From sequence record LC739534.1: 64,000 nt of DNA; one strand, written 5' to 3'. The DNA comes from Escherichia phage phiWec181. Both the position numbers and the translations under genes were made by a program. Below the pieces are notes generated by a model. That model saw nothing but the letters and a program-made list of their open reading frames with translations, was not told where the DNA came from and searched no databases. Numbering within the stretch: the first letter of the stretch is position 1; every line of letters starts with the position of its first letter. This document shows positions 43,469-60,138 of this stretch, piece by piece.

Positions 43469-43483
43469 AACATAGGAGGAATT

Positions 43484-44076: not shown

Positions 44077-44085
44077 GGAGAAAAT

Positions 44086-44955
44086 ATGAAAAATATTCAG
44101 CCATTACCTGTAGTTGGGGATTTGTATTTCTTATCTGGTACGGGTTATTCCCCAGAAGCATTAGAAGTTAACAAGAACGTCTTCCGAGTGAAAGAAATAA
44201 GAGAAGAATGTAATGAAATTGTTTTCGAAGGTATTACTAATGGAGTTCTTCAGTATGCAGAGATGCGTAGCTGCTTCCAGCAACCTTTCCGCCCGTTGGC
44301 AGACGAGTATAAGATTGCGGTAAATATTGATGATCTTAAAAAAGAACCAGGGTTCGAAGCGTTCTCTACTTTTATGGAAGATACGTATGTGGATGTAAAG
44401 AGATCTAACCTTTTCGCGGGGGATAATTTCCCTCACTTTGTGTCAGAGAAAAGTGATGGTTTTTCCGACTACGTGGATGCTGTAAACTATGATGTTTCTG
44501 AATTGACAGGAGAGCAGGATTATCTTCTGCTGTCTCCTAAAGATTTCATGCGCGTAATGTATGCCGTAGCCGAACAGAAAAAGAAGAAAGAAAAGCTTGT
44601 AGCCAAAAAAGTTAAAAAGGTTAAAGGTAAACGTGCCAAAGGTGTTCCAGAACGTAAGCGCACCGTAAATAAGGCGACAGTCTTCTTTACCAGCGGTGAG
44701 CAATATACGATCAAAGGTTTTAAAGAAGTGGGTTACACTGCTGGCGGAAACCTTCTGTTCTTCACAGTTGCAGAAGAAGGAGAAACTTTTATCCGTTTTT
44801 CCAATATGTGGGAAATGTCTGTAGAAGATATTAAAAGTGTTGTTGTTTTAGGTGTACATAAGAGTTTCATTATTAATCAAATCTCTGATTTCAGTGCACA
44901 CTTGACAGCACCAGATTTCGAAACTACCACAACAAGCTTTAACTTCAAGGTGTAA
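44086..44955 (+). CDS. hypothetical protein (289 aa) with Lys-rich segment
   Basis: RBS GAGGAG; internal KKKKEKLVAKKVKKVKGKRAK. Confidence 0.65.
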   Translation: MKNIQPLPVVGDLYFLSGTGYSPEALEVNKNVFRVKEIREECNEIVFEGITNGVLQYAEMRSCFQQPFRPLADEYKIAVNIDDLKKEPGFEAFSTFMEDTYVDVKRSNLFAGDNFPHFVSEKSDGFSDYVDAVNYDVSELTGEQDYLLLSPKDFMRVMYAVAEQKKKKEKLVAKKVKKVKGKRAKGVPERKRTVNKATVFFTSGEQYTIKGFKEVGYTAGGNLLFFTVAEEGETFIRFSNMWEMSVEDIKSVVVLGVHKSFIINQISDFSAHLTAPDFETTTTSFNFKV

Positions 44956-44958
44956 TGC

Positions 44959-45549
44959 ATGAATACCGAGAGAGATTTAAAACTCTTGTGGTGGGAAGTG
45001 ATGCAGGAGATCAAGGAGGATTTCCCTGTTTACTACAACATGCTACGTGAAGCTGGATATACGGCTTGCGTTAGGAACAAAGTGAATAACTCTTTCGGTT
45101 GGTGCAACTACCGAGAAAAGATTGTTGTTGTGAATTGGCACTTGCATAAAAACTCCACAAGGGATATGATAGTGGACACAATGAAGCATGAGATTGCTCA
45201 TGCGATCGACGGTTGTATGGGTAAGTTCAGTCGTCATGGACCACACTGGCAAAAGCTGGCAGCAGAGTTGGGAGCCAATCCTAAAGCTACTTCCAAAGAA
45301 CCGTTAAACCATGAGTACAAATATGTTCTTGTTTTGGTGGACAGATTTGCCACAAGATGTGTTAGAGGGTATAATCGTAAACCTAACCGTATGACTCCAG
45401 GGAAACAACCACATATTTGGTTGAAGAGTGATAAAGAGGGGACAGAAGGAAAAATATGGTTGTATAAATGGGAAGATTGGGTTAAAGTAGCTAAAGAATA
45501 TGGTGTTTCACCTTACACAAGAGAAATAGAAGAGGAGAATGAAGAATGA
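44959..45549 (+). CDS. SprT-like zinc metalloprotease-motif protein (196 aa)
   Basis: HEIAHAI (HExxH) preceded by conserved Cys/Trp region. Confidence 0.5.
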   Translation: MNTERDLKLLWWEVMQEIKEDFPVYYNMLREAGYTACVRNKVNNSFGWCNYREKIVVVNWHLHKNSTRDMIVDTMKHEIAHAIDGCMGKFSRHGPHWQKLAAELGANPKATSKEPLNHEYKYVLVLVDRFATRCVRGYNRKPNRMTPGKQPHIWLKSDKEGTEGKIWLYKWEDWVKVAKEYGVSPYTREIEEENEE

Positions 45550-46658
45550 CAAGTCCATTTTTGAAAGCGGCAACTGGTGGTCAAAAGAAATCTGAAACGA
45601 GTGTACTGACTGCTACTACAGATGCAAGCAAGTCCGTGTTCGCTCCGAGTGTCCTGGATGCAAGTCCAGTGTATGCTCCAGCAGCGCCAAAAGCTGTGCC
45701 TACCTTGCCAACAATGTCTCGTAAAGAGATTGAAGAAGTGGGTGCAGAAGCAGGTTTAACTCTCCGCACGCTGAATGCCGAAGTGTTAAAGCACCAACGT
45801 AGCAATCAAGGCGATGAAATGAGCCAACGCCTTACCGCGCTGATTAAACAAGCCAAACAGCTTGATCCTGCTTCTATCAAGCAGAGCAAAGGTGTAGGCA
45901 AACTTATCAAGAAACTGATGGGTATGAAGGAAGATCTGTTCGGGGAATTCGATAATGTGAACAACCGTATCGAAGAACTCGTTAAGAATCTTCAGATGGA
46001 TATTCGTAAAGAAGAAGATTCTCTGGTGTACCTGGAGAAGCTGCACCAGGCGATCGGACAGTACGCCGCAAGCCTGAATCGTGATATGGAATTACTCACA
46101 GCAGCTTATGAGCAAGAACTGGCTAACTTTGAAGCTACGCCAGAAGATGACGTAGAAGCCCGTCAACGCGTCCGTGACACGCTTGATCTTCTGGAGATAC
46201 GTATTGCTGACTTGAAGGCATTACGCTTGCTGTGCGTGCAAATGGGGCCGCGTGTATTGGGTATGCAGAAAGTATCTGCCAGCCTCATGCGTTCTGCTCG
46301 TAATATTGTGAACAATGTGATTCCTGCTTACTCGGCAAACTTCTCGATGTATATTGAAAGTCTGCGCCAGAAGAAAGCAGCAGAAACACAGAACAACGTT
46401 CTGGACGAGTTCAACCTGGCAATCAAACTGGGTAGCGATCTTGCCACACAGAACCAGATCGAAGCAGCAGCACTGGCTAACCGCCAAGTGTTGGATATCG
46501 AAACTCTGCGTCACGATCAGGAGAACTTGGTTAAGATGTTGGAAGAAACTAACCGCATCAATACGGAAGCCCGTGCTGCCCGTGTTGATTACATCAATGA
46601 AGTTCAATCTCTCGAAGATGGGATGGTTGACGCTGTTAAGAAGGGGTTGGGTAAATGA
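45546..46658 (+). CDS. coiled-coil protein (370 aa), possibly TelA-like
   Basis: Long helical, heptad-rich translation; TelA guess rests on size and Ter neighbourhood only. Confidence 0.6.
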   Translation: MTSPFLKAATGGQKKSETSVLTATTDASKSVFAPSVLDASPVYAPAAPKAVPTLPTMSRKEIEEVGAEAGLTLRTLNAEVLKHQRSNQGDEMSQRLTALIKQAKQLDPASIKQSKGVGKLIKKLMGMKEDLFGEFDNVNNRIEELVKNLQMDIRKEEDSLVYLEKLHQAIGQYAASLNRDMELLTAAYEQELANFEATPEDDVEARQRVRDTLDLLEIRIADLKALRLLCVQMGPRVLGMQKVSASLMRSARNIVNNVIPAYSANFSMYIESLRQKKAAETQNNVLDEFNLAIKLGSDLATQNQIEAAALANRQVLDIETLRHDQENLVKMLEETNRINTEARAARVDYINEVQSLEDGMVDAVKKGLGK

Positions 46659-46861
46659 GAATCCGTGTATACATGCTTGACGAACAAGCTGGAGAAATAG
46701 GTGTTCGTTATGATGAAGAGAAACGCTTTGCCCCAATGACCCAGCTACAAACTCCAGATATTTTTGCAGCTTGTCGTGACGGATATATCTATGAAGGTTG
46801 TCGCAACTTTGGCAGATTTAAAGTTATTTCTGATGTGGAATTTAACGAGGAGGAAGAATGA
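46655..46861 (+). CDS. hypothetical protein (68 aa)
   Basis: ATGA overlap. Confidence 0.5.
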   Translation: MRIRVYMLDEQAGEIGVRYDEEKRFAPMTQLQTPDIFAACRDGYIYEGCRNFGRFKVISDVEFNEEEE

Positions 46862-47028
46862 AAACATTGCGTGTGAACATCGAAACTACCTGGCGAGATT
46901 TCGAGGTTGTTGATATTGAGATTGAAGACGATATGTCTCAAGAAGATATCGAAGATCTTGCAAAAGAAACATTTCAGGACTATTGTAATTACGGGTTCCA
47001 TATTTTAGGGGAGGAAGAAGATGTTTAA
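46858..47028 (+). CDS. hypothetical acidic protein (56 aa)
   Basis: Below ORF-track cutoff; ATG overlaps previous stop; RBS GAGGAGG. Confidence 0.4.
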   Translation: MKTLRVNIETTWRDFEVVDIEIEDDMSQEDIEDLAKETFQDYCNYGFHILGEEEDV

Positions 47029-47419
47029 ACACACAAACGTAAACTTGAAATTAACAGTAACAGATCCGACTCTTTTCATCAATCTTACAAGCGGGGAAGT
47101 TTATGAAGTTATCACAGACGAGGATGGTTCTTGCTTCCTTAAAGGTTATTATCTCTGTGAATCTGATGAGTTGGTATCTATTATCACCTTGGGAGAATAC
47201 GAAGAACCAGGCTTCCGTGTGGAGGTTGTTAAGAATCCCGATATTATCCAGTTGACTCGCCAAGAACTGATCACAATCATGGAAGACGCTTTTATTGATG
47301 GATGGAAGACTCAAAACTATGATTGGAGTGGCCCAGAAGACTTCCTGCGTCTTCATAAAGAGTATGACGATTCCAGCGAAACTACTATTGCCATTGATAG
47401 TATTAAGGCTGGTGTGTAA
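47021..47419 (+). CDS. hypothetical protein (132 aa)
   Basis: RBS GGAGGAAGAAG. Confidence 0.6.
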   Translation: MFKHTNVNLKLTVTDPTLFINLTSGEVYEVITDEDGSCFLKGYYLCESDELVSIITLGEYEEPGFRVEVVKNPDIIQLTRQELITIMEDAFIDGWKTQNYDWSGPEDFLRLHKEYDDSSETTIAIDSIKAGV

Positions 47420-47488
47420 TGAAAAGTGTTGACAACAATCTCCATAAGATGGATAATACCTCCATCGAAAAAACGGGAGGAGATAAGA

Positions 47489-47761
47489 ATGTTTGATTTT
47501 AAAATAAAGGATTCAAAACCCCAAGATGTAGCAGTTCGTTTCGAAGAGTTGGGGATTGGTGAAACTTTCATGTATTATTCAGCATATGAAGAAAATGGTT
47601 TGGATACATTTGCAAACTTAGTATTCCTTAAAAGCGGCGGCGCGACTGCTGTTTGTTTGAATAGTTCATCAAGAGGGAGTGTCCATACCGTATCCCCAGA
47701 TGTGCCGATGGTTGCAGTTCGTTTAGTAGTTACTGATATTACACTTACAGAGGAGAAATAA
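47489..47761 (+). CDS. hypothetical protein (90 aa), paralog of 48783-49064
   Basis: ATG 47489 with GGGAGGAG RBS; both paralogs sit immediately upstream of a TerD-type gene. Confidence 0.55.
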   Translation: MFDFKIKDSKPQDVAVRFEELGIGETFMYYSAYEENGLDTFANLVFLKSGGATAVCLNSSSRGSVHTVSPDVPMVAVRLVVTDITLTEEK

Positions 47762-47762
47762 T

Positions 47763-48563
47763 ATGTCCAATAAAATTAGCCTGAAGAAACGCCAAGACAC
47801 CCTGACCATTTCACTGAAGAAAAAGAAAATTGTCAACGAAGATCAAAAGATCGTTCTGCGTGTTGCAAGCGCACTGGATATCTCCGGCAGCATGTCCAGC
47901 CTGTATCGTAACGGTACTGTAAGTGAGTTTGTTGGTAAGCTGCTTCCGTTTGGTATGCTGTTCGATGATAACGCGCAGATCGATATGTGGGCTTTCAACA
48001 ATAGCTCTCGTGAAATCACTCCAGCAACTGCTGATGTGTATGATGATTACGTTGGTAAATGCATTAATGGTCGTGTAACAGTCCAGGGTGGCACAAGCTA
48101 TGCACCTGTTATGCAGGATATTTACGATTCCTACTTCGGTAGCACCACTAAATATGAAACTGTAGAAACCCCTGTAACCAAAGAAGTTCCTAAGAAAGGT
48201 TTCTTCAACCGTTTACTGGGTAAAACCGAAACTGTAGAAGCTATTGTAGAAAAAACTGTAGCCGTTGCTGTGCCTGGTGTAGACGTTACTCCGGCAGTTG
48301 TGTTCTTCCAGACAGATGGAGAGAACGATGATCCGAGCCGTGTACTCTCCGTACTGGAAAAGAACAAGGGTAAACCTATTTACTGGTTCATGGTGGGTGT
48401 TGGTAGTGCTCGTTTCTCTTTCCTGAAAGATTTGGCTGAAGCTTACGACAACGTAGCATTCATTGGTCTGAACGATCTTTCCTTGACAGACGAGCAGCTT
48501 TACGATAAACTCTTGTCTGAAGAGTTCGGTGAGTGGGTTGAAAAGGTTGGTGCTAAGAAATGA
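47763..48563 (+). CDS. vWA-domain protein with TerD-like N-terminal leader (266 aa)
   Basis: MIDAS-like DISGSM; GGTSYAPV; VVFFQTDGEND; N-terminus KISLKK...ISLKKK like the TerD gene. Confidence 0.65.
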   Translation: MSNKISLKKRQDTLTISLKKKKIVNEDQKIVLRVASALDISGSMSSLYRNGTVSEFVGKLLPFGMLFDDNAQIDMWAFNNSSREITPATADVYDDYVGKCINGRVTVQGGTSYAPVMQDIYDSYFGSTTKYETVETPVTKEVPKKGFFNRLLGKTETVEAIVEKTVAVAVPGVDVTPAVVFFQTDGENDDPSRVLSVLEKNKGKPIYWFMVGVGSARFSFLKDLAEAYDNVAFIGLNDLSLTDEQLYDKLLSEEFGEWVEKVGAKK

Positions 48564-48802
48564 TCGACACGCTGATCTCTCAAACGGTGTTGCAAGTGAT
48601 GCGTGAGAGAGAAGCTTTCATCATGAAGGGTCTTAAAGATTATTTTGGGACTCTTTCTTTGGAAGAACTCAAACTACGCGTTGAGATCCATGCGTATCCT
48701 TCTTATGAAGAATGGATTGACAAAGCAAATAAAGCTGTTATAATGCGTATCAACAAACCAGAAATCACGACAGGAGGACAAGATGTTAAATTTCGCCATT
48801 AA
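48560..48802 (+). CDS. hypothetical protein (80 aa)
   Basis: ATGA overlap. Confidence 0.5.
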   Translation: MIDTLISQTVLQVMREREAFIMKGLKDYFGTLSLEELKLRVEIHAYPSYEEWIDKANKAVIMRINKPEITTGGQDVKFRH

Positions 48803-49064
48803 GAAAGATAGCAAACCAAAGATTCAGACTTGTCGCATTGCAAATCTTACACATGGTGATTTGTTTGTTCTGAAAAGTGCCTACGACGAAGACGGTCTTG
48901 ATCCAGAAGCAGTCGTCGTTTATATGGTGTTGCGGCGAGATGAAGACACCAAGCACCCATACAATGCGGTAGAGATGAATTACAATGCAATGTTGTGCTC
49001 AATACACTATACGGCAGAGTTGGTGCAGGTAGAGTTAACAGTTAACGAAATTAAACTTAAATAA
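48783..49064 (+). CDS. hypothetical protein (93 aa), paralog of 47489-47761
   Basis: RBS CAGGAGGA. Confidence 0.55.
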   Translation: MLNFAIKKDSKPKIQTCRIANLTHGDLFVLKSAYDEDGLDPEAVVVYMVLRRDEDTKHPYNAVEMNYNAMLCSIHYTAELVQVELTVNEIKLK

Positions 49065-49079
49065 TAGAGGAGACACATA

Positions 49080-49682
49080 ATGAGCGATAAAATTTCCCTG
49101 AAAAAAGGTTCCACCGAGAAGATTTCCCTGAAGAAAGTTGCTCCGGCACTGAAAGAACTGCGTCTGGAGTTCTCCTGGAAATCAAACTCTAAACTGGATC
49201 TGGATGTAAGCGCACTTGTATGCCGACACAACGCCTCTGGCAACCCTGAAATGCTGTCTGCACGTCATCTGGTTTGTTATGCTAACAAGTTTGATCCAGA
49301 ACGTTCTGTATTCGCAGGTGATGATGTTCGTGACGGTACTGGTCAAATGGAACAAATCGATGTAACCTTGGCTAAGATCTCCGATAAAGCCGAAGAGATT
49401 GCTTTTGTCCTAACTATTGATGATGAAACGGGTCAGAAACGTCTGGGTCACGCTACTGAAGGTATGCTGAAGATCTTTGATGCCGAGCGTAACGTTGAGA
49501 TCCTGGACTTCGACTTCTTGGCTCCTGAAGTGGCTGGTAATACCATCTGCCACGTAGCTTCCCTGGTTCGTGAAGACGGTGAATGGAAACTGAAAGCTTA
49601 CGGTGTTGGTAAAGCAGGTATGGATATCTGTGATGTGGTTATGGCCTTCGGTGGTCAGAAAGAATGGTACGATTGCCCGTAA
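49080..49682 (+). CDS. TerD-domain protein (200 aa)
   Basis: Translation aligns by eye to E. coli TerD: ISLKKG, DLDVSAL, GDDVRDGTG, IAFVLTIDD, REDGEWKLKAYGVG. Confidence 0.8.
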   Translation: MSDKISLKKGSTEKISLKKVAPALKELRLEFSWKSNSKLDLDVSALVCRHNASGNPEMLSARHLVCYANKFDPERSVFAGDDVRDGTGQMEQIDVTLAKISDKAEEIAFVLTIDDETGQKRLGHATEGMLKIFDAERNVEILDFDFLAPEVAGNTICHVASLVREDGEWKLKAYGVGKAGMDICDVVMAFGGQKEWYDCP

Positions 49683-49779
49683 GATTTAACTGAAATGTTG
49701 TTGGGGGAGAAATCCCCCATTGCAAAAACGCCTCTCATGTGTTATACTGGTAGTTCATTCACCCAAAAGGAGGCAAAAT

Positions 49780-50301
49780 TTGCTGATAAAAAACTTTGTA
49801 ACAGTTGCGTTACTATCCTTAACTGCTTTTACATTTACACCTGTCACGGCAACCGCCGAAGCTGCAAACGTAAAGACTGCTAAAGTAGTTCACAAATGTG
49901 CAAAGCAAGATACTAAAGAAAATCTCTTGGCTTGTGCAATTTACGCTGAAAGTCGTAATCAGGGTAAACGTGGGATGTATGCTGTAGGTAATGTAGTATT
50001 GAACAGGAAAGGTGATGATTACTTCCCTGATAATATTAAAGATATTCTCTTCCAACGAGGACAATTCTCTTACAGGAAGAAGTTTAACGTTACCGAAGCA
50101 GAGCGATGGAAAGAAGCTAAAGCTATCGCAAAACGACTTATATACCTGGATACACACTTCCCTACACTTAGAGAAGCCCAGGACATGACAAAAGGTGCGA
50201 CATTTTTTAAGAAAGTAAAAACCCGTGCACACTGGACAAAAGATATGGTCTTAGTGTATCGTTATAAAGAACATCAGTTCTACCTACCGACAAGGAGCTA
50301 A
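49780..50301 (+). CDS. SleB/CwlJ-like cell-wall hydrolase with signal peptide (~173 aa)
   Basis: LLACAIYAESRNQG...AVGNVVLNR motif; TTG start 49780 after AAAGGAGG gives a signal peptide, whereas ATG 49720 has no RBS. Confidence 0.65.
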   Translation: MLIKNFVTVALLSLTAFTFTPVTATAEAANVKTAKVVHKCAKQDTKENLLACAIYAESRNQGKRGMYAVGNVVLNRKGDDYFPDNIKDILFQRGQFSYRKKFNVTEAERWKEAKAIAKRLIYLDTHFPTLREAQDMTKGATFFKKVKTRAHWTKDMVLVYRYKEHQFYLPTRS

Positions 50302-50998: not shown

Positions 50999-51562
50999 AT
51001 GATTTATTATATTACCCCCTATCTAAGTGGAGATATCGGCAAAGCAATTAACGATGCTATTGCCGTTCTTCACGAAGATAGTTGGGTCTGTTTACGTGAT
51101 ATCGATACCATGTTCTTACTGCCAGACCAACCTTCTATGTTGGAAGATTTGGTAGCAACCAATCCACCGTTTGATGTGATCGGTGCGTCTTGTAATCGTT
51201 TAGGTAGTGGTTATCAACTTCTCGGTGGAAAGATTGATGATGATCCTAACATTCTGAACCATATTTCTCATGCCAAAGTTGCTCGTGATTACTATGGTGA
51301 TGAAATTGAAGAAGTCCCACAAGGCACTCCCTTAGCAGGTTTCTTTCTATTGTTCAGGAAATCATTATGGAAGGAGATCCCTTTTGAAGAACGTACCATC
51401 CAGTTCGATATAATCTTCTCAAACACTTTACATGAACGAGGAAAAAGGTTAGGATTGATGCGTGGGATGTATCTCTTCCATATTTACCGTTTAGGTCAAA
51501 AAGATCCTCAACGGGCAATATCACACCTTATGCATTGTCATGATCACCGGAAAACTATTTAG
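50999..51562 (+). CDS. glycosyltransferase-like protein (187 aa)
   Basis: DxD-like CLRDIDTMF; tandem with three other glycosyltransferases. Confidence 0.45.
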   Translation: MIYYITPYLSGDIGKAINDAIAVLHEDSWVCLRDIDTMFLLPDQPSMLEDLVATNPPFDVIGASCNRLGSGYQLLGGKIDDDPNILNHISHAKVARDYYGDEIEEVPQGTPLAGFFLLFRKSLWKEIPFEERTIQFDIIFSNTLHERGKRLGLMRGMYLFHIYRLGQKDPQRAISHLMHCHDHRKTI

Positions 51563-51570
51563 GGGGAAAG

Positions 51571-52254
51571 ATGGAAAATATTAAAATTGGGGTTGGCGTT
51601 ATCACTGTAGGTGTTCGTCCACTTAAAGATTACATGGTTGCACCTGGTGTAGACTTCAAAGTGTTTCACGATCCCGATCGTAAAGGTGTAGCTTATGCTC
51701 GCAACCAATTAATGAAACAGTTCTACGATGAAGGTTTTGACTACTGGTTCATTTTTGACGATGATTGCTATCCGGTTAAACGTGGCTGGGAAGAATACTT
51801 CGTTAACCAGGCTGTCGAGAATGGTTGGGACTTCTTCGGTATGCCAGAATACTTCAAAGATACTGTGATAGGTTGTTCTGGAGAAGTAGTCTTCTGGGAA
51901 TTGGCTATGTGTCAGTTTGCAATGTATTCTCGTGCAACTGTTGAGACGATGGGTTATTTCCGTCCTTATACACACGGATATGGTTTCGAAGATGCAGAAT
52001 GGACTAATCGTCTGAAAGCTTCAGGTTTGAATAAAGGACTCCAGGGCGTACCTTGTCCGATGCGCATTATGGCGTACATTCACCCCGACGATGTTTTCGG
52101 TGATAACCCTTTACCTTTTGCTAATCTGACAAAAGAAGAGAAAGAATCAGCAATCGGGATCAATTGGGAAGAATACAAACTGTCTTTGGAGGATATTAAT
52201 AATGGCAAAACACACATCTCTTTTGAAGAGGCTGAAGGATATGGCGTTAAATAA
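51571..52254 (+). CDS. GT-A (family 2-like) glycosyltransferase (227 aa)
   Basis: FIFDDDCYP DxD motif. Confidence 0.55.
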   Translation: MENIKIGVGVITVGVRPLKDYMVAPGVDFKVFHDPDRKGVAYARNQLMKQFYDEGFDYWFIFDDDCYPVKRGWEEYFVNQAVENGWDFFGMPEYFKDTVIGCSGEVVFWELAMCQFAMYSRATVETMGYFRPYTHGYGFEDAEWTNRLKASGLNKGLQGVPCPMRIMAYIHPDDVFGDNPLPFANLTKEEKESAIGINWEEYKLSLEDINNGKTHISFEEAEGYGVK

Positions 52255-53188
52255 GAAACCAACCCTACTGTGTGACAACAAATTCAACAGTGGTTGTGAT
52301 TACCATCGCATTGTCATGCCATTTTCTAACACAGAGATCAAGCCACGTACTGATGTACTGGTCTTTAACCGCATCTTCTCGAAGGGTGCTGATGAAGTAG
52401 CCAAACTTAAGCGCCAAGGTGTTAAGATTGTTGTAGATTTGGATGATTTCTATCAATTGAATCCAGAACACTACCTGGCGCATCTGTACGCGCCAAACAC
52501 CCGCACAATCGTGGAAATGGTTAAAATAGCAGATATTGTCATTGTCACAACCGAATACCTGGCGTACAAAGTTCGTCACTTAAACTCTAACGTTGTTGTG
52601 ATCCGAAATGCTCTACCGTTTGATGATGGTCAATTCACTCTCTCGAATGATCGTACTTCGGGTACGCCTATCATTTGGGCTGGAGGTGCGAGTCATGAAC
52701 CGGATTTACGTTTGCTTTCAAACACTTTTGATGATAGTTTATTGTCTATCGCAGGGTATGAAGCGAGCAGCACAGTGACAGGGCAAGAGTGGGTTAAGAT
52801 CCGCCGTAGTTTGCCTAATGCGCAGTATAAACCTGCTGTAGATTCTTTGAATCATTATATGTCTGCATACGATGGTCATGCTATGGCTGTAGCTCCGTTA
52901 GTAGATAACGACTTCAACCATTGCAAGAGCAACCTGAAAGTATTAGAAGCTGGTGCTAAAGGCATTCCAATCGTTTGTTCTAAGGTATTACCTTACTACA
53001 ACCCGATCGATGCCCGTGCAGTAACCTTCGCAGATAGCAAAGCAGAGTGGCACTATGAAGTTGTAAAACTACTTCGTAATCCAAACTACCGCGAAGATCG
53101 TGGACTGTTCTTGGCTGAACATGTTCGTACTCACTACAACTTGAAGGATGCAAACGAATTGCGTCGTCAAGTGATCGAAAGTCTGTAG
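52241..53188 (+). CDS. GT-B glycosyltransferase (315 aa), paralog of next gene
   Basis: C-terminal KSNLKVLEAGAKGIPIVCS resembles GT1/GT4 nucleotide-sugar-binding motif; shared CDYHR N-terminus. Confidence 0.6.
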   Translation: MALNKKPTLLCDNKFNSGCDYHRIVMPFSNTEIKPRTDVLVFNRIFSKGADEVAKLKRQGVKIVVDLDDFYQLNPEHYLAHLYAPNTRTIVEMVKIADIVIVTTEYLAYKVRHLNSNVVVIRNALPFDDGQFTLSNDRTSGTPIIWAGGASHEPDLRLLSNTFDDSLLSIAGYEASSTVTGQEWVKIRRSLPNAQYKPAVDSLNHYMSAYDGHAMAVAPLVDNDFNHCKSNLKVLEAGAKGIPIVCSKVLPYYNPIDARAVTFADSKAEWHYEVVKLLRNPNYREDRGLFLAEHVRTHYNLKDANELRRQVIESL

Positions 53189-53194
53189 GTGTTT

Positions 53195-54139
53195 ATGGGA
53201 CAAATTATTCTTGACAATCGTGGTGGAAAAGAATATAGTGTCTGTGATTATCACCGAGTAATGCTGCCTTACACAAGGCAGTTCTCGGCCCAACCGTCAC
53301 AGAACGTATATGTCTTTAACGGTGTCCCTACGAAAGGGAAACAAGGCTTCATAGCCCTTAAGAGCATGGGCTTTAAGATGGTAATGGATTTGGATGACTC
53401 TTTAAACATTCCCCAAGGCCATATGCTGGAAGACATTTTTGATGCAGGTATTCGAGAAGACTTGCAATGGTTCCTCGAACGCAGTGATCTTGTAACGACA
53501 ACAACCCCTGCTCTCCAGGTGGAATTGTCCCAGTACAATCCTAACGTGCATATTATCCCAAATGGTTTACCGTTTGACGAGGATCAGTTTACGTTAACTC
53601 GTGATCGCTACTCCAAGTCCCCTGTAGTTTGGGCTGGAAGTGAAACACACAAGCAAGACCTGGCTCTACTACCGAACTTCGGGAGTGACTTAACGATTTG
53701 CGGATTCCGCAGAGATAGTGAAGTGTTAAGTAGTCAGCAATGGACCGATATACGTGAAAAGGTGGCTCCAAGCTGCAAATATGAGGCTGTTAGACCATAT
53801 GAGAGCTATATGGAATCTTACGACGGTCATCAGATAATGCTTGCACCTCTAACAGATAACATGTTTAATAACGCTAAGAGTAACCTGAAGATTCTGGAAG
53901 CAGGTGCCAAGGGTTTACCTTTAGTGTGTTCTCCCCGTGAAAACTACTTCACCGAAGAGTTTAAAGATTTGTTGTTCTTTGCAGAAACAAAAAGCGAGTG
54001 GGAAGATATTGTTAATTACCTGATCCAGTGTCCTGATGTGGGTATTGAAAAGGGATTAGCTTTAGCTAAGTATGTTCGTAAGCATTACCATATTGATGTG
54101 CTGAATGAACGCCGTAGATTATTATTTGAGGAGTTATAA
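53195..54139 (+). CDS. GT-B glycosyltransferase (314 aa), paralog of previous gene
   Basis: KSNLKILEAGAKGLPLVCS; CDYHRVMLPY. Confidence 0.6.
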   Translation: MGQIILDNRGGKEYSVCDYHRVMLPYTRQFSAQPSQNVYVFNGVPTKGKQGFIALKSMGFKMVMDLDDSLNIPQGHMLEDIFDAGIREDLQWFLERSDLVTTTTPALQVELSQYNPNVHIIPNGLPFDEDQFTLTRDRYSKSPVVWAGSETHKQDLALLPNFGSDLTICGFRRDSEVLSSQQWTDIREKVAPSCKYEAVRPYESYMESYDGHQIMLAPLTDNMFNNAKSNLKILEAGAKGLPLVCSPRENYFTEEFKDLLFFAETKSEWEDIVNYLIQCPDVGIEKGLALAKYVRKHYHIDVLNERRRLLFEEL

Positions 54140-54417
54140 TGCTGAATACTTTTGATTTTGAATACACTACGAAAAGTGGTTTTAATGTTGTGGTGGAGGT
54201 TGACTATTACTACGAAGAGCCTGATCCACACTCACGGGAAAGTGATTGGGATTACCACGGCGGGTTACTGATCGACGGTATCCGTTTCTATGCGGGTCTG
54301 GAACAGATTAATGCGGAAGACATTAACGTCACCGTAACAGAAATCGCATACCAATTCAAAAAACATATGGAGGCATTAGAAGCCGAGTACATGATGGAAA
54401 CTAACGAATCATTTTAA
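54139..54417 (+). CDS. hypothetical acidic protein (92 aa)
   Basis: ATG overlapping previous stop. Confidence 0.5.
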   Translation: MLNTFDFEYTTKSGFNVVVEVDYYYEEPDPHSRESDWDYHGGLLIDGIRFYAGLEQINAEDINVTVTEIAYQFKKHMEALEAEYMMETNESF

Positions 54418-54426: not shown

Positions 54427-55071
54427 ATGACCATGAGGTTAGTACAAGGTTGGGGGATTAATGATATAGGTAGTATCCCTAAAACAGGTTTTATCCGAGT
54501 AGCTTACAGGTGTTGGTCAAGAGTTTTAGAAAGATCTCACAGTAAAGCTTGGAAGAATAAGTATCCTACATACAAGGATGTAACATGTTGCGAAGACTGG
54601 AAATATTTTTCAGTATTCATGGACTGGATGGAGACACAACCTTGGGAAGGAAACGATTTGGATAAGGATTTGTTAGGAGATGGTAGCTTATACTCCCCTC
54701 AAACTTGTGTTTTTATACCTCCTGAAATAAATAAAGCTTTAGCTGCAAATAAAAAACAAGGAGAATTCTTATCTGGAGTCTGGTTTCAAACAAAGTCTAA
54801 AACTATGGTTAATAGTTTAAAACGTCCTTGGGCTGTTAAAGCCCATAGACAGGGTAGTAAAAAACCTGTATATTTAGGAAACTATTATTCAGAACAAGAA
54901 GCCCATAATGTGTGGTTGACTACACGCGCAGAGGATATGTTATGGTGGTGCGACCAATGGGAAAACAACGAGAAGTATAATAAATCTTGGAAACCTGTGT
55001 TTAAAGAAGCTTTTAATAAGAAAGCTGAAGCTTATAGAGGGAGGATAAAAAATGTCATACATTGTCACTAA
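54427..55071 (+). CDS. HNH/AP2-type homing endonuclease-like protein (214 aa)
   Basis: W..RC...Y..V..CEDWKxFSxFxxW...YSPxTC then AP2-like Y.SEQEAH..W; paralog of 59542-60138. Confidence 0.6.
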   Translation: MTMRLVQGWGINDIGSIPKTGFIRVAYRCWSRVLERSHSKAWKNKYPTYKDVTCCEDWKYFSVFMDWMETQPWEGNDLDKDLLGDGSLYSPQTCVFIPPEINKALAANKKQGEFLSGVWFQTKSKTMVNSLKRPWAVKAHRQGSKKPVYLGNYYSEQEAHNVWLTTRAEDMLWWCDQWENNEKYNKSWKPVFKEAFNKKAEAYRGRIKNVIHCH

Positions 55072-56833
55072 GTATGGTTTTGATGTAGATTTAAGCAAAG
55101 AGGGGCACACAGGGTGTCCCCGTTGTATGAAGAACGGAAAAGATAGATCGAAGAATAACTTGATGTGTTATGGGTTGGATTCTAACGATGAGCATAAAGG
55201 AGCAAAATGCTTCGCGTGTGAGTACACAATCCCCAGCGTTGAATGGTTACGAGAGAATGGTGAAGTTTTAGAAGAAGAGGAGGATATTGTGGGTTCGGAA
55301 TTTAATAAAGAGATTCATCGTAAGATTGTAGAAGAAACAGGCACTAACCCACGAGGCTACCGTGGGATCAAGGAAGAATATTCTAAATTCTACGGTGTAC
55401 GTTACCAGTACAAACAAGAAGAATCTGGTGTTGTTGTGGAACATACTTTGTATCCAACAACTATCGGTAAAGAACTGGTAGGTTTTAAGCGTCGTATCCA
55501 CCCTAAAGACTTCTCCAAGCCCATTGGTCAAGTAGGTAAAGATGTAGATTTGTTTGGACAAGTTCGTTTCCTTGAGCGTTCCCACACCGTAATCATTACT
55601 GGTGGTGAACATGATGCCTTGGCAGCATATCAAATGTTGGCAGAAGGTCTTGACAGGAAATATGAATTACCAGCAGTAGTTAGTGGCACAACTGGTGAAA
55701 CCAGTATGTACAAACAGGTACAGGCACAGTACCCTTTCTTTGAGAAGTTCAAGAAGATCATCGTCTGCATGGATAATGATAAGGCAGGTAAAGAAGCTTT
55801 TGAGAACATTGTGAAGGTGTTGCCTCGTAATAAAGTTTACCTGATGAAGATGGAACTGAAAGATGCTAATGAATACCTGGTGCAAGATAAAGCAAAAGAT
55901 TTTGTGAAAGCTTATTGGGGTGCAAAACTTTATACCCCAGCGGGTGTTTATGCTTCGAACGAACTTTATGAAGCTGCAATGGACTGTCTGGATGCACAAG
56001 TGATCACCCTCCCTCCGTTCATGCGTACTGCTGCGAACATGTTGGGTGGTGGTCTGGTAGAAGAAGAGATCACAGTTATTCTGGCTAAAACGAGTATCGG
56101 TAAGACGTTGATGGTCAATGAGATCACCAAACACATTATCGTGGCTCATCCAGAACATGTGCTGGGTATTCTGTCTCTGGAGGCAACGTATAAGAAATAC
56201 TCCCGTAACCTTCTTTCTTCGTTCCTGCATATTCCTTTGCATCGTAAGACTAAGGAAGAAAAGGCTGCGATCCTGGAAGAGAACAAGGAAGCTATCAATA
56301 ACTTCTACGTTCGTGAAGATGGTTCTCCTCGCTTCTTTGTTTGTGATGATCGTGGTGCAGACATTGATTCAATCAAGGAGAAAGTGCTGGAGATGATCAT
56401 CTACTTCGGCATTACCATCCTGGTAATTGACCCATACTCGGATCTGTTGTCGGGGATGAGTGTTCAGGAACAAGAAGAGTTGGCAACGTGGTTGAAGCGC
56501 ATCATGAAAGAATACGGCATCACGATCATTGTAATCTCGCACGTTAAGAAAGCTGCCAACAATGGTAACGAACACTTAACAGAAGATGATGCAATGGGTA
56601 GTAGCTTCTTGGCTAAAGGCGCAGGTATTACACTGGCACTGGAACGAGATAAGGCTAACGATGACCCCGTACTTAGAAACACAACTTTTTGTTATATTCT
56701 CAAAAACCGAGAGTTTTCAGAAACTGGTCCGGCTGGGGAGTTTTATTACGATATTAAAACTGCCACGCTACACGACAAAGCACAGTATTTTGCTAACCCT
56801 GATAATGCAGGTGGTGCAGAAGGCGCGTATTGA
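55052..56833 (+). CDS. DNA primase/helicase (593 aa)
   Basis: N-terminal zinc ribbon CPRC...CFAC; TOPRIM (GGEHD, DNDKAG); DnaB-like Walker A AKTSIGKT and Walker B LVIDPYSD. Confidence 0.85.
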   Translation: MSYIVTKYGFDVDLSKEGHTGCPRCMKNGKDRSKNNLMCYGLDSNDEHKGAKCFACEYTIPSVEWLRENGEVLEEEEDIVGSEFNKEIHRKIVEETGTNPRGYRGIKEEYSKFYGVRYQYKQEESGVVVEHTLYPTTIGKELVGFKRRIHPKDFSKPIGQVGKDVDLFGQVRFLERSHTVIITGGEHDALAAYQMLAEGLDRKYELPAVVSGTTGETSMYKQVQAQYPFFEKFKKIIVCMDNDKAGKEAFENIVKVLPRNKVYLMKMELKDANEYLVQDKAKDFVKAYWGAKLYTPAGVYASNELYEAAMDCLDAQVITLPPFMRTAANMLGGGLVEEEITVILAKTSIGKTLMVNEITKHIIVAHPEHVLGILSLEATYKKYSRNLLSSFLHIPLHRKTKEEKAAILEENKEAINNFYVREDGSPRFFVCDDRGADIDSIKEKVLEMIIYFGITILVIDPYSDLLSGMSVQEQEELATWLKRIMKEYGITIIVISHVKKAANNGNEHLTEDDAMGSSFLAKGAGITLALERDKANDDPVLRNTTFCYILKNREFSETGPAGEFYYDIKTATLHDKAQYFANPDNAGGAEGAY

Positions 56834-56916: not shown

Positions 56917-59514
56917 ATGAGTAAGTTTACATGGGATATTGAAGCAACCGCATTACTGAACAATGACACAATTGATTACCTGGCAAGCCCTTATCGATTG
57001 AAAGACACTTTTGGTATGCATTGTATTTGTCTGGAAAACCACGAAACAGGAGAGATCATTGCTTTTCACGATGGTCCTAAGTACATTTTCGATGGTCGTC
57101 CTTATGAAGAGTCTGACGGTAAGTACACTTATGTACTGAAGGAGTATGTGGCACAAGAATACACACACTTTCCTCTGTCAGATTTTCCAGATTTTGTCAA
57201 CCATACAGGCAAGTTCGCAGATAAGCCTGAATACCTCGTAGAAATGGCTGTAGCCCACAACGGCATCAACTATGACCACTTGGCAGTTAAGCTTTACTAC
57301 GGGCTGAATTACAGCGTTAAATACAATACTTGGGGTGATTCGAAAGTTAAGATTATTGATACCCTGATCCTTAGTAAAGTATTGAACCCTGATCGCAAGG
57401 TTGATGGTAAACCTGGGCACAACTTGAATGCTCTTTCTAAAAAAGCTGGCGGTGATGTTAAGATTGATTTCCGTAAAGAGCTTCCAGAAGGAGAACGATT
57501 CAAGACTTTCGCAGCAGATATGTTGTACTACTGTATCTACGACAACAAGGCAACTACAGCAGTATATTATTACCTCATGGAAGAATGGGGCGATTATAAG
57601 AAGTGGCAAGAGCCGTTCGACTTGGAGCAACGTATTGCGGATATCATCACCCGTCAAGAACACCGTGGCTTTAAGTTCAACATGCAACAAGCTGAACAGA
57701 ACCTGGAATTCTTGGACAAAGAAATGGAACGTCTACGTTTGTTGGTAGAGCCTATTCTTCCACCTAAGCCAGCGACTAAAGGTTATCTGAAAGATTTTAT
57801 TCCGCCGAAACTTCAAATCAAGAAGAACGGTGAGCCAACAAACCATATCATCAGGTTTGCGGAGAAACATGGCGGTAGCCTTGAAGAACGTGAAGGTGAT
57901 TGGTGGCTGCTTGTTTTAGATAAAGAGTTTAAGTTACCGATCTCAAGTGAAGAACCTATTTGTGAACCTACCATTCCGTCTACGCTGAATGATACGACAC
58001 ACATTAAAAACTGGCTTGTAGGTTTAGGTTGGGTTCCGTCTGAATATAAAGACAAGGATTTGACGCTTAAATCTGGTTCGAAGATCAAGAAAGATCCTGA
58101 CGACTTAGAGAAAGGTATTCTGTCTTATGTCAAACAGACCTTGGAAAGCAATTTCTGTAATGACCGTTGCGAACACTTACAAGCCGATGCTGAAACACTG
58201 GAGCTTAGAATCCGTGAACGTCTGGCTAAAGGGAAAGGTCGTGGTCTTAAAGTGCTGACCAACCCATGCTTCACGAAGGGGCAGGAGAAAGAGATTTGTC
58301 CTAATCTTGAAGCACTGGGCGAGAAGTTCCCGTATGCCACACAGATTGTGCAGTACCTGACGTACAAACATCGTCGAAACTCTATTTTGGGCGGTGGTGC
58401 AGATTGGGAAGACGATGAGGAAGATCAAGAATACGACAAAGGTTTCTTGGCAGCAGTTCGTGCCGATGGTCGTATAGCGACTCCAGCGGCTACATGTGAC
58501 GCTGCAACATCTCGTATGAAGCATCGCTCTGTTGCTAACGTTCCTCGCGTTACATCGTTGTTTGGGTACGAAATGCGTAACTTGTTTGGGGTAGAAACAC
58601 CGCGTTACTTCCAGATCGGTTATGACTTTGACTCCTTGGAAGCAAAGATTGAGTCGCATTATTGTTGGCGCTACGAACCGGAGCCTCATGAATACTGTAA
58701 CGCTCTCTTGTTGGAGAAGCCTAACGATGTTCATACCATGATGGCAAGACGTATCACAGAAACTATTGGACGTAAGTTTGAACGTAGTCCAGCTAAATCT
58801 GTTAAATACGGGATTACATATGGAGCACAGGCAGACAAAGTTGCTAAGACAATTGGTAGTGATAAGTACACAGGACAACTGGTATTTGATGCGTTCTGGG
58901 AAGCAGCTTTCCCGTTAGCACAACTGAAAGAGAAGTTGAATGCTTTCTGGGTTAACACTGGCAAGCAGTATGTTCTCGGTATTGATGGACGTAAAGTTCC
59001 AACACGATCTGCACATGCAATCTTAAACTCCTTGTTCCAAAGTGGCGGGGTTATCTGTGCCAAGCGTGCAATGGTAATCTATGACGATATGATTGAAGAG
59101 GAAGGTTTAGCTGTTGACTTCTTCGTAGATGACTGGAAGAATAAAGAGTTCGTTCAGCAAATGATTGCTTACCACGATGAAGCGCAGCTTGAAGTATCTC
59201 GTAACTTGGTGGAATTTAAATGGTTCTCCAAAGAGTCTTTAGGTTGGGTTAAAGTGGATGACGAGAAAGAGCAGAAGAAAATAGATGCGGAATGTCTTGC
59301 AAAAGCTAATGAATGGAAGCATAATAAAGAGAAAGAGACAGGGCAGATTTGGGCTAACGTTCACGAATCACCTAAAGGTGGTTGGTTTACCGCTTATAGT
59401 CGTGCCGGAGAACTTGCTTCTCTTGCTGTTATCAAAGCTGGGGAATATTACAAACTAAACGTTCAGCTTACCGCTGGATACGATGTTGGTAGTTCCTGGG
59501 CCAGTTGTCATTGA
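56917..59514 (+). CDS. family A DNA polymerase with 3'-5' exonuclease domain (865 aa)
   Basis: Exo motifs DIEATAL, NGINYDH, YYCIYD; polymerase motif A GYDFDSLE, motif B KSVKYGITYG, motif C YHDE. Confidence 0.9.
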   Translation: MSKFTWDIEATALLNNDTIDYLASPYRLKDTFGMHCICLENHETGEIIAFHDGPKYIFDGRPYEESDGKYTYVLKEYVAQEYTHFPLSDFPDFVNHTGKFADKPEYLVEMAVAHNGINYDHLAVKLYYGLNYSVKYNTWGDSKVKIIDTLILSKVLNPDRKVDGKPGHNLNALSKKAGGDVKIDFRKELPEGERFKTFAADMLYYCIYDNKATTAVYYYLMEEWGDYKKWQEPFDLEQRIADIITRQEHRGFKFNMQQAEQNLEFLDKEMERLRLLVEPILPPKPATKGYLKDFIPPKLQIKKNGEPTNHIIRFAEKHGGSLEEREGDWWLLVLDKEFKLPISSEEPICEPTIPSTLNDTTHIKNWLVGLGWVPSEYKDKDLTLKSGSKIKKDPDDLEKGILSYVKQTLESNFCNDRCEHLQADAETLELRIRERLAKGKGRGLKVLTNPCFTKGQEKEICPNLEALGEKFPYATQIVQYLTYKHRRNSILGGGADWEDDEEDQEYDKGFLAAVRADGRIATPAATCDAATSRMKHRSVANVPRVTSLFGYEMRNLFGVETPRYFQIGYDFDSLEAKIESHYCWRYEPEPHEYCNALLLEKPNDVHTMMARRITETIGRKFERSPAKSVKYGITYGAQADKVAKTIGSDKYTGQLVFDAFWEAAFPLAQLKEKLNAFWVNTGKQYVLGIDGRKVPTRSAHAILNSLFQSGGVICAKRAMVIYDDMIEEEGLAVDFFVDDWKNKEFVQQMIAYHDEAQLEVSRNLVEFKWFSKESLGWVKVDDEKEQKKIDAECLAKANEWKHNKEKETGQIWANVHESPKGGWFTAYSRAGELASLAVIKAGEYYKLNVQLTAGYDVGSSWASCH

Positions 59515-59541: not shown

Positions 59542-60138
59542 ATGCTTACTGTATATGGTGAAGGTATTAATGATCTGGAGGGTGAGAGCACTCTACCTGG
59601 TAGTAAGAAACTGACTCCTCATTATATGAAATGGATGGCTATGTTGGGGAGGTGTTACTCCCCTTGCCAACAAGAACGTGATCCTTGTTATCATGGGGTG
59701 CTGGTCTGTGAAGAATGGAAGCTGTTTTCCAACTTCTATGCTTGGTTAAAAACTTGGGAAGAGTGGGAGAAATTAGAATTAGACAAGGATATTATTGGAG
59801 GGGGAGTTTACTCCCCTAACACCTGCCTTTTAGTAACAGGAGATCTTAACAAGTTCTTAGCTTATAGAGTGAGTAAAAGATCTCATGGAACTATGGTAGG
59901 TTTACATTACGAAAAAGATCGTAAGAAGTATAAAGCCAATATTAAAACAGGCTCACGCATGGTAACACTTGGACGTTTTGATACTGAACTTGAGGCGCAT
60001 CTTTGTTGGTTGAAAGCTAAAGCAGAACAACTTACAAAGTTTTTTGAAACAGAAGACAAAAGAGTTGTTCCACATCTTAAAGCATTGTATAATGATATGC
60101 TTGAACATATTGAACAACGTAAGGAGTGGACACGATAG
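59542..60138 (+). CDS. HNH/AP2-type homing endonuclease-like protein (198 aa)
   Basis: Paralog of 54427-55071; AP2-like GRFDTELEAHLCW. Confidence 0.6.
   Translation: MLTVYGEGINDLEGESTLPGSKKLTPHYMKWMAMLGRCYSPCQQERDPCYHGVLVCEEWKLFSNFYAWLKTWEEWEKLELDKDIIGGGVYSPNTCLLVTGDLNKFLAYRVSKRSHGTMVGLHYEKDRKKYKANIKTGSRMVTLGRFDTELEAHLCWLKAKAEQLTKFFETEDKRVVPHLKALYNDMLEHIEQRKEWTR

Follow-up and report, generated by a model that had tools for sequence, protein, structure and literature searches.

Four tandem glycosyltransferase genes of Escherichia phage phiWec181 and their possible role in virion glycosylation

Positions 50999-54139 of a 64,000-nt stretch of Escherichia phage phiWec181 (LC739534.1), which we call the window and to which all position numbers refer unless another record is named, are filled exactly by four open reading frames (ORFs) on one strand. 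Our analyses suggest that these encode four glycosyltransferases (GTs), two small enzymes of GT-A type (GT-A1 and GT-A2) and two paralogous GT-B enzymes (GT-B1 and GT-B2; Table 1), and we tentatively propose, by analogy with other viruses, that they might form a glycan-assembly cassette that decorates virion proteins. The genes, their annotation as GTs and a rhamnose pathway in these phages are already present in databases and papers; the literature assigns no function to the genes. New here are the whole-genome exclusion of the known partners of DNA glycosylation, and the assignment of the GT-B gene to a large, phage-specific and uncharacterised family with modular glycan-decorating partners, often found in head modules. 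As complete-genome reference we used phiWec179 (LC739533.1; 154,443 bp, assembled from four pieces), in which the window corresponds to record positions ~74326-138325; the 3,141-bp cluster region is 100% identical in Escherichia phages phiWec179 and phiWec186.

Both GT-B proteins matched the PHROG glycosyltransferase family phrog_7162 (E 4e-138 for GT-B1 and 4e-135 for GT-B2) and are 41% identical to each other (E 4e-76). Against the 25-bit gathering cut-off of the Pfam family Glyco_trans_1_2, GT-B2 scored 26.7 bits, the sole Pfam pass among the four proteins, and GT-B1 stayed under it with 20.8 bits. The AlphaFold model of GT-B2 (pLDDT 95.7, pTM 0.93), a prediction that an earlier note on this DNA had proposed for the pair, retrieved 218 Foldseek matches from PDB at E<=0.001, with GT4 enzymes on top; the best of them, with E values of about 1e-9, were TreT and the bacterial retaining enzymes MshA, GlgM, PglA, BshA, PimB' and the serine-rich-repeat GTs GtfC/Gtf3. 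The model thus predicts a GT-B fold closest to GT4 enzymes, and the same fold is likely for GT-B1 because of its identity to GT-B2. The phage proteins share the nucleotide-sugar motif with the bacterial GT4 enzymes and differ from them in their low identity (only 11-15%, with a TM of 0.55-0.65), their shorter length (~315 aa), their distinctive N-terminal CxYHR and DLDD motifs, and in belonging to a family restricted to phages and prophages. A profile search of PDB with the GT-B family reached only MshA, weakly (E 0.005), and PDB sequence searches with all four proteins retrieved nothing meaningful; a nominally significant match of GT-B1 to an AI-designed TIM barrel was discarded as a low-complexity/repeat artefact.

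In an alignment of 61 family members, which includes both paralogs, all 16 invariant residues are kept in GT-B1 and GT-B2. Among these, K230-S-N-L-K234, E237 and A238 belong to a C-terminal motif, K-S-N-L-K-x-L-E-A-G-A, that aligns with the nucleotide-sugar site of GT4 enzymes, in a region matching MshA, TreT and PglA. The N-terminal acceptor domain is also strongly conserved (H22, R23, D67, D69, D70, H78 and N125). There are two GT-B copies per genome in Stephanstirmvirinae and one in distant Klebsiella phages, and homologs from prophages and metagenomes score higher with GT-B1 than with GT-B2. Sequence comparisons therefore point to GT-B1 as the paralog nearer to the widespread phage family, and to GT-B2 as a probable lineage-specific duplicate, the second copy being particular to Stephanstirmvirinae. 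Both candidate start codons of GT-B1 are preceded by a ribosome-binding site, and the start of GT-B2 was chosen from the sequence and the annotation of relatives.

GT-A2 matched the PHROG glycosyltransferase family phrog_2456 (E 6e-74), with below-threshold Pfam matches to GT2, TAGT and Glyco_transf_7C. In its family, D64 and D65 of the D63-D64-D65 motif are invariant and D63 nearly so, and E140 and D141 are invariant as well. From its AlphaFold model (pLDDT 87.4), GT-A2 is predicted to be a DxD glycosyltransferase of GT-A fold: Foldseek retrieved generic GT-A matches from PDB (E 1e-5 to 1e-3), including STIV A197, chondroitin synthases, B4GALNT1, Listeria RmlT, TarP and PBCV-1 A64R, and only generic viral GT2/GT25-like proteins from BFVD, where no named DNA glycosyltransferase was among the matches. 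GT-A1 matched phrog_14179, annotated as 'glycosyltransferase' (E 1e-102), and retrieved nothing from Pfam, NCBIfam or PDB in sequence searches. A few of its homologs gave weak matches to GT2 subfamilies, and D34-x-D36 is nearly invariant across its family, which weakly suggests a GT2-like glycosyltransferase, putatively of GT-A fold. The family profiles of GT-A1 and GT-A2 show no relationship to each other (hhalign probability 0.2%). The ATG of GT-A1 is preceded by the ribosome-binding site AAGGGG, and this gene also adjoins GT-B in two small phage contigs (L049 and L051; L-numbers are our locus labels). The earlier note had seen in the cluster two GT-A-like genes with DxD motifs and two paralogous GT-B genes, and the PHROG matches, the two models, the identity of the GT-B pair and both aspartate motifs bear this out, with GT-A1 as a putative GT-A member.

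The four genes are separated by gaps of at most 8 nt or overlap. Their phAPEC8 orthologs (gp071-074) are all four labelled 'glycosyltransferase' in RefSeq, and NCBIfam has no family for any of the four proteins. Maximum Kyte-Doolittle hydropathy in a 19-residue window ranges from 0.64 to 1.42, so that no transmembrane segment is expected in any of them. Comparisons among phiWec179, phAPEC8 and EmilieFrey showed saturated synonymous sites and 0.13-0.30 nonsynonymous substitutions per site (dN); wherever the synonymous rate (dS) could be estimated, dN/dS was at most 0.1 (0.10 for GT-A1 against phAPEC8, 0.06-0.10 for GT-A2 and 0.04 for GT-B2). This rules out non-functional or decaying genes; all four GT genes are real, and purifying selection on them is strong.

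We infer that the donor may include rhamnose, that the enzymes may act in sequence and that virion proteins may be the acceptor. The two soluble GT4-like paralogs and the two small GT-A enzymes would work in the host cytoplasm during infection, each moving a sugar from a nucleotide-sugar donor, and would jointly build a short oligosaccharide in no more than four transfer steps or at no more than four sites. Phage RmlB/A/C/D would provide some of the donor, at least, in the form of deoxythymidine diphosphate (dTDP)-L-rhamnose. The acceptor would be other than bulk genomic DNA, most plausibly one or more structural proteins of the capsid, tail or fibre, so that the virions would carry glycans in analogy to the capsid glycosylation of mycobacteriophages and chloroviruses. 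What leads us to favour this reading is the set of glycan enzymes that accompany the GT-B family, a gene order in one locus, L049, like that of mycobacteriophage Corndog, and the location of the module among head genes in several independent lineages.

In the protein database the GT-B family forms 101 clusters, almost none of which has a name, and at least 552 relatives were confirmed in IMG/VR, where GT-A2 has 350. Twenty-one GT-B loci come from bacterial genome assemblies and are prophages or phage-like, with the two that we looked at in detail being prophages; the family is thus phage-specific, including prophages, and widespread, with hosts that span Pseudomonas, Burkholderia, Chitinophaga, Acetivibrio and Streptomyces. 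We compared 143 loci of at least 9 kb, which group into 36 lineages at 50% anchor identity. GT-B occurs alone in 63 of them, together with GT-A2 in 47, with both GT-A families in 16 and with GT-A1 in three, and GT-A2 occurs alone in 12. The immediate neighbour of GT-B is usually GT-A2, and GT-B is the hub of the module, with GT-A2 and GT-A1 as optional partners.

Gene order in GT-B loci frequently places the module next to packaging and head genes. In a lambdoid Pseudomonas prophage (L020), Rha/ANT, NinB and NinG are followed by Big_2, GT-A2, GT-B, a metallopeptidase, terS, terL, portal, MuF, scaffold and capsid genes; in a Chitinophaga prophage (L028) the order is primase, GT-B, a helix-turn-helix gene, hexapeptide acetyltransferase, a GT-A2-like gene, terS and terL. 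Other arrangements are terminase, GT-B, GT-A2 and portal (L009); tail fibre, GT-B, terminase and portal (L011 and L014); GT-B, two small ORFs and terminase (the L012 group); GT-A2, GT-B and portal, with the capsid gene further on (L105); and, in Streptomyces phage KimJongPhill, a nucleoside diphosphate (NDP)-sugar epimerase, a methyltransferase, GT-B, terL and portal. L049 has terL, portal, GT-B, GT-A1, GT-A2, a PLOD-type GT and a Methyltransf_24 gene, the last with a weak match to rhamnosyl O-methyltransferase/CmcI. Replication or recombination genes adjoin the module in the large myoviruses (the window, L008 and L044) and in L013 and L057, and a lysozyme gene does so in L047 and L053.

A single Pfam scan covered the closest neighbours in the 36 lineages (142 proteins of 110 aa or more). 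It gave Glycos_transf_2 (eight times), Hexapep (three), Metallophos (three) and GT_PLOD (two) as the commonest families, followed by proteins of the head and of packaging (terminase, three portal families, capsid, head completion, connector and S49 protease), and then by DNA-related genes found once each, one of the Mom family among them. At least 13 loci have a hexapeptide acetyltransferase close to the module, a pair of PLOD-GT and methyltransferase recurs in 4-5 loci, and methyltransferases like gp35 of Corndog are near GT-B in four. Hhalign comparisons of 12 recurrent neighbour clusters (c1, c2, c9, c19, c20 and others) with GT profiles revealed no hidden GT partners. With its extra GT2 enzymes, NDP-sugar enzymes and transferases for acetyl and methyl groups, this set of partners is characteristic of a decorated oligosaccharide on a protein or glycoconjugate and not of a known sugar modification of DNA.

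Two features of these neighbourhoods deserve separate mention. The PLOD-type GT-A and the Methyltransf_24 genes are paired beside GT-B in L032, L049 and L063, and in L098 they are fused in an ORF of ~433 aa (positions 4295-5596 of that locus), reminiscent of a multidomain chlorovirus enzyme for capsid glycans. The Big_2 gene of L020 (8645-9271 of that locus, from the prophage of Pseudomonas sp. App30) encodes an Ig-like protein of 208 aa directly upstream of the GT-A2/GT-B and terminase genes; that it might be a virion-surface acceptor is pure speculation.

The closest parallel for the cassette is found in mycobacteriophages, in the form of analogy and not of membership. Cassettes such as Corndog gp35-38 and the Che8 GTs are likewise tandem phage GT genes without membrane parts, and Corndog gp34-41 are ordered as portal, O-methyltransferase (gp35), three GTs (gp36-38) and then capsid, so that L049, with its additional GTs and methyltransferase, occupies the same position from portal to capsid. 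Capsid and tail-tube proteins are the reported targets of the Corndog enzymes (PMC11600133, citing Freeman et al. 2023; also PMC11256854). The phiWec179 cassette differs in lying in a replication-side block and in belonging to a myovirus of a Gram-negative host; the position within the head module is seen in its relatives L049, L009, L105, L020 and KimJongPhill. In the chlorovirus PBCV-1, Speciale et al. in 2019 are said to have found that A064R combines rhamnosyltransferase domains for the capsid glycan with a methyltransferase domain. It resembles the cassette in being a GT-A enzyme of viral origin that works in the cytoplasm, where it assembles a methylated capsid glycan with rhamnose in it, and differs in that its donor is uridine diphosphate (UDP)-L-rhamnose, not dTDP-L-rhamnose, and that its virus is eukaryotic. 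The structure of its domain 1 (2p72) ranks 29th among the fold matches of GT-A2, with a weak match (E 1e-3, TM ~0.36).

A donor pathway is encoded elsewhere in the genome and was missed by the earlier note because it lies outside the window. An rmlB-rmlA-rmlC-rmlD operon is found at 42284-45559 of the phiWec179 record (L006:17959-21234), ~80 kb from the GT cluster and adjoining nrdAB and a thioredoxin-like gene. All four products surpass the NCBIfam equivalog cut-offs (in bits, 428.8/365.1 for RmlB, 465.7/360.65 for RmlA, 246.1/155.75 for RmlC and 244/224.05 for RmlD), which indicates a complete dTDP-L-rhamnose pathway. Tblastn retrieved 144 records with the GT-B gene, 169 with rmlC and 145 with TerD, all three being distributed over one set of phages: Phapecoctavirus, Justusliebigvirus and a small number from Klebsiella (05F01 and phi1_175008 for GT-B and rmlC). 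GT-B and rmlC are essentially missing from other groups, including Vequintavirus, as the identity distributions leave no space for the many genomes of this genus. The co-occurrence is real but phylogenetically non-independent. The pathway had been noted in phapecoctaviruses and phi92-like phages by Olsen et al. 2020 (PMC7552041), who speculated that it serves the glycosylation of hydroxymethylated nucleotides. In the other loci we found no RmlA, RmlC or RmlD homolog within 10 kb of the GT module and a single RmlB-like dehydratase, in L132, which rules out a general co-localisation of rml genes with the module.

Several observations weigh against virion proteins as the acceptor. The scarcity of rml genes near the module in other lineages implies that rhamnose is not the donor throughout the family. 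In the window, the cassette lies in a block that looks early or middle (TerD, endolysin, primase-helicase and DNA polymerase), away from head genes. The four proteins have no detectable homology to the experimentally validated GTs of Corndog (no phmmer match and hhalign probabilities of at most 5% with gp36-38), nor to gp35-38 as a whole. Also, the acceptor domain of GT-B is conserved across phages with unrelated capsid and portal families, which would suit an acceptor common to all of them more than a protein particular to one lineage. The position beside the terminase genes is in turn a generic site for cargo insertion and a site of DNA-modifying genes, as illustrated by the Mom-family neighbour, and the case for virion-protein glycosylation in Stephanstirmvirinae is one of analogy with other phages.

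The earlier note had considered plausible the glycosylation of a modified DNA base, given the location of the cluster directly upstream of replication genes. The order that it described, between Ter genes and the replication core, stands; direct adjacency does not, since endolysin and three small ORFs lie on the upstream side and ORFs of 92 and 214 aa on the downstream side. The rival idea is that rhamnose or other sugars are placed on a hydroxylated pyrimidine, or sparsely or site-specifically on a canonical base by a different chemistry, as a means of evading nucleases, and the speculation of Olsen et al. 2020 (PMC7552041) went in the same direction. Besides the nearness of the primase-helicase and DNA polymerase genes, it is favoured by an acceptor domain conserved among phages of many hosts, as expected for a universal acceptor such as DNA, and by a certain likeness to the T-even DNA GTs (T4 alpha-GT, GT72; beta-GT, GT63; and the T6-type second glucosyltransferase TAGT, PF20691), which are also phage-encoded soluble GT-B/GT-A enzymes encoded near replication genes, with several GTs acting in series; some DNA-glycosylating phages also bring NDP-sugar genes. 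GT-A2 has, moreover, below-threshold similarity to TAGT (18.5 bits against a cut-off of 27.5 bits, residues 36-73 only) and, over residues 18-80 only, to phrog_842 (E 3e-7), the family named 'beta-glucosyl-HMC-alpha-glucosyltransferase'. However, both matches span only the generic DxD region, the cluster proteins are not homologous in sequence to either T4 alpha-GT or beta-GT, and the 50 best structural matches of GT-B2 contain neither T4 enzyme.

Partner enzymes were sought in the whole genome. The earlier note had found no hydroxymethylase in the window, which holds, and had suggested searching the rest of the genome for a deoxyuridine or deoxycytidine monophosphate (dUMP/dCMP) hydroxymethylase; none appeared in the 154,443 bp of phiWec179. 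Searches of this genome with T4 gp42 (a ThyA-family dCMP hydroxymethylase), alpha-gt, beta-gt and gp56 deoxycytidine triphosphatase (dCTPase) yielded nothing at E<=10 with phmmer and only noise, above E 1.7, with tblastn (for alpha-gt and beta-gt, nothing better than E 2), although a very divergent homolog could escape such single-sequence queries. The only thymidylate-synthase-like gene of phiWec179 is a divergent ThyX (record 36145-37134; L006:11820-12809), annotated as 'thymidylate synthase' in relatives, which scores 35.8 bits with Pfam Thy1 and 28.7 bits with NCBIfam thyX (cut-off, 87.9 bits) and has ~150 extra C-terminal residues. Most hypermodified viral pyrimidines arise by transfer of a group onto an existing hydroxyl, typically that of 5-hydroxymethylcytosine (hmC) or 5-hydroxymethyluracil (hmU), the newly described 5-hydroxycytosine (5hoC) is likewise the product of a ThyA homolog, and all glycosylated pyrimidines so far described begin from hmC, hmU or 5hoC via ThyA homologs (Lee et al. 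2026, PMC13326640). Near the module, a ThyA-like gene occurs in just one of the 143 loci. Neither the annotation of PsgM04F and phAPEC8, nor the Pfam lists, nor the neighbour families listed contain a pairing of a TET/JBP dioxygenase with a 5-methylcytosine methyltransferase, in the course of searches that were not aimed at TET.

The behaviour of relatives goes in the same direction. The BASEL phage EmilieFrey (Bas61, Justusliebigvirus) has the same four GT genes in the same order, with 73% protein identity, plus rmlC. Justusliebigvirus relatives with the cluster are described as exceptionally susceptible to restriction-modification 'despite a putative dTDP glycosylation machinery' (Maffei et al., PMC8594841), and Bas61 and Bas62 are also subject to Druantia III and ARMADA II, two systems that in the authors' view recognise unmodified DNA (PMC13463889). 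The phage encodes several DNA methyltransferases, as do phages with canonical bases, and lambdoid prophages carry the module without a methyltransferase, TET or ThyA gene in its vicinity. Its partner acetyl- and methyltransferases and multiple GT2 genes are typical of protein or polysaccharide glycans. Isoelectric point, considered as a proxy for DNA binding, was uninformative, because T4 alpha-GT is itself acidic. The missing partners, the restriction-sensitive relatives and the generic nature of the DxD-region hints make glycosylation of bulk genomic DNA very unlikely, and we regard DNA glycosylation in its broader sense as improbable, with most of what likelihood is left falling to a sparse form. 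Direct glycosylation of phage DNA by the GT-B family at low density or at specific sites, with no hydroxymethyl- or hydroxy-pyrimidine precursor, is a still more distant prospect, to which we give very little credence. It would explain the conserved acceptor domain, the weak resemblance of GT-A2 to TAGT and the placement beside genes of the terminase or of replication. Such a modification, too sparse to stop classical restriction enzymes, could be directed against other defences or label the DNA to be packaged. Even if the function of the cassette proves ordinary, a practical lesson is that GT genes on the replication side are not evidence of DNA hypermodification when a base-hydroxylating partner is missing.

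Another possible acceptor is the host envelope, which we consider unlikely. The soluble GTs would then cap or alter lipid-linked intermediates of the enterobacterial common antigen (ECA), the lipopolysaccharide (LPS) core or the O-antigen on the cytoplasmic side, and rhamnose may be the sugar they add. ECA synthesis would lose dTDP-4-keto-6-deoxyglucose to the Rml enzymes, and by destroying its own receptor the phage would avoid superinfection and the binding of progeny to debris. Metabolism of dTDP-sugars does intersect ECA synthesis, many GT4/GT2 structural neighbours use lipid-linked or wall-polymer acceptors (PglA, PimA/B, TarP and RmlT), and GT-B genes elsewhere are annotated as 'putative disaccharide synthase' or 'RfaG'. 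The proposal also fits the receptors of these phages, as Vequintavirinae and relatives appear to use ECA and LPS core (PMC8594841). Nevertheless, the four GTs have no membrane segment and are accompanied by no flippase or initiating transferase, temperate relatives place the module in the late or structural operon and not in a position for lysogenic conversion, the family spans hosts with unrelated envelopes (the five genera named above), and complete modification of surface glycans during lytic infection is judged futile by the authors of the BASEL expansion. GtrABC, TarP and Listeria RmlT, a wall teichoic acid L-rhamnosyltransferase, resemble the cassette in being phage-borne or rhamnose-using GT-A enzymes, and RmlT in complex with TDP-rhamnose had the highest TMq (0.52) among the 50 matches of GT-A2 listed, which also include TarP. 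The cassette differs from them in that it has no membrane components and no lysogenic-conversion locus, and belongs to a strictly lytic phage. Host-surface conversion, which the earlier note offered as an alternative, finds no counterpart here in its classical, Gtr-type form, since none of the four proteins, all free of transmembrane segments, fits a membrane GtrA flippase, a GtrB bactoprenol GT or a polytopic GtrC.

The earlier note had also contemplated a small metabolite made by the nearby PRTase/HAD genes. In a wider form, the acceptor would be a nucleoside-like metabolite of the Ter-associated PRTase/HAD/Macro module, or a conserved host protein or signalling molecule, with a role in takeover or anti-defence, and this seems to us quite unlikely. 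Upstream of the cluster there is a complete Ter-associated module (HAD, PRTase_3, Macro, TerC, TelA, vWA-TerF and TerD), and the order of Ter, GT and replication genes is kept in L044, a distant 153-kb relative whose GT-B is only 39% identical; several GT4 neighbours take small molecules (MshA, BshA and a tetrahydrobiopterin GT), and the conserved acceptor domain would suit a universal small acceptor. Yet dozens of lineages carry the GT-B/GT-A2 module without any Ter, TelA or PRTase gene in the surrounding 10 kb, and among the 143 loci Ter genes are near the module only in the relatives that are large myoviruses; this wide occurrence without Ter genes weakens the metabolite alternative. Placement in the late operon of temperate phages is also unusual for takeover or anti-defence genes, and we know of no precedent.

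Phages of the genera Phapecoctavirus and Justusliebigvirus are common coliphages of broad host range, repeatedly isolated for therapy and biocontrol, and the literature has remarked on their dTDP-rhamnose pathway and glycosyltransferases despite their restriction-sensitive DNA. If virion-protein glycosylation were true, no earlier system of this kind would be known from phages that infect Gram-negative bacteria, and its core would be an uncharacterised GT-B family present in hundreds of viral contigs. Virion glycans of mycobacteriophages alter antibody recognition, and an equivalent effect here would bear on phage pharmacology.

The reference phiWec179 is classified in the Stephanstirmvirinae, genus Phapecoctavirus. 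The cluster region is 93-94% identical to that of phiWec188, phiWec190 and 'Pseudomonas phage' PsgM04F, and ~75% identical to that of phAPEC8 and some 50 further Phapecoctavirus genomes. The genes surrounding the cluster are listed in Table 1.

Table 1. Coordinates of the GT genes and of other features of the window
Feature	Positions	Strand	Length (aa)	Remarks
GT-A1	50999-51562	+	187	Putative small GT-A/GT2-like glycosyltransferase; D34-x-D36
GT-A2	51571-52254	+	227	Predicted GT-A fold; DDD (DxD) motif and YGFED motif
GT-B1	52202-53188, or from ATG 52241-53188	+	328 or 315	Putative GT4-like GT-B
GT-B2	53189-54139; probable start ATG 53195	+	314	Putative GT4-like GT-B
NrdD and NrdG	37073-39354		604 (NrdD)	Anaerobic ribonucleotide reductase and activase
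HAD hydrolase	40176-40832			Ter-associated module, upstream of the GT cluster
PRTase_3 (ComF-like)	40804-41652			Ter-associated module
Macro domain	41662-42144			Ter-associated module
TerC	42461-43435			Ter-associated module
SprT-like	44959-45549			Ter-associated module
TelA	45546-46658			Ter-associated module
vWA-TerF	47763-48563			Ter-associated module
Sigma-70 consensus	48717-48744			TTGACA, 16-nt spacer with TG, TATAAT
TerD	49080-49682			Ter-associated module
Endolysin	49720-50301			Between TerD and GT-A1, with three small ORFs
Conserved ORF	54139-54417	+	92	Start overlaps the stop codon of GT-B2
Inserted ORF	54427-55071		214	Between GT-B2 and primase-helicase
Primase-helicase	55052-56833			Downstream of the GT cluster
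DNA polymerase (DNA polymerase A)	56917-59514			Downstream of the GT cluster
Paralog of the inserted ORF	59542-60138		198	

The conserved 92-aa ORF that follows GT-B2 has no match in a Pfam scan and occupies the same position in phAPEC8 (gp075), PsgM04F, EmilieFrey and L018, a contig from a metagenome-assembled genome; its membership of the cassette is uncertain. The inserted 214-aa ORF, also with no match in a Pfam scan, and the 198-aa ORF are paralogs (33% identity, E 3e-28) that flank the primase-helicase and DNA polymerase genes and lie in stretches missing from PsgM04F and phAPEC8; they look like mobile insertions of the homing-endonuclease kind.

The Ter-associated module (40176-49682) is complete in this lytic phage, and is present in Stephanstirmvirinae and apparently not in Vequintavirus. 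Upstream of the block with TerD, endolysin and the GTs there is a perfect sigma-70 consensus; a scan for promoters and terminators performed at chance level, with 25 promoter-like sites against 26.9 expected. In PsgM04F, the neighbour of the NrdD/NrdG genes is labelled 'ribonucleotide reductase' or 'DNA helicase', an annotation that looks loose. Finally, the public record labelled 'Pseudomonas phage PsgM04F' (OR584014.1) is 94-98% identical to this coliphage, and 'Campylobacter phage A150/C3' (MG065639.1/MG065656.1) and 'Acinetobacter phage ABPW7' (OP562383.1) are also Stephanstirmvirinae genomes, which makes the host labels of these records doubtful.

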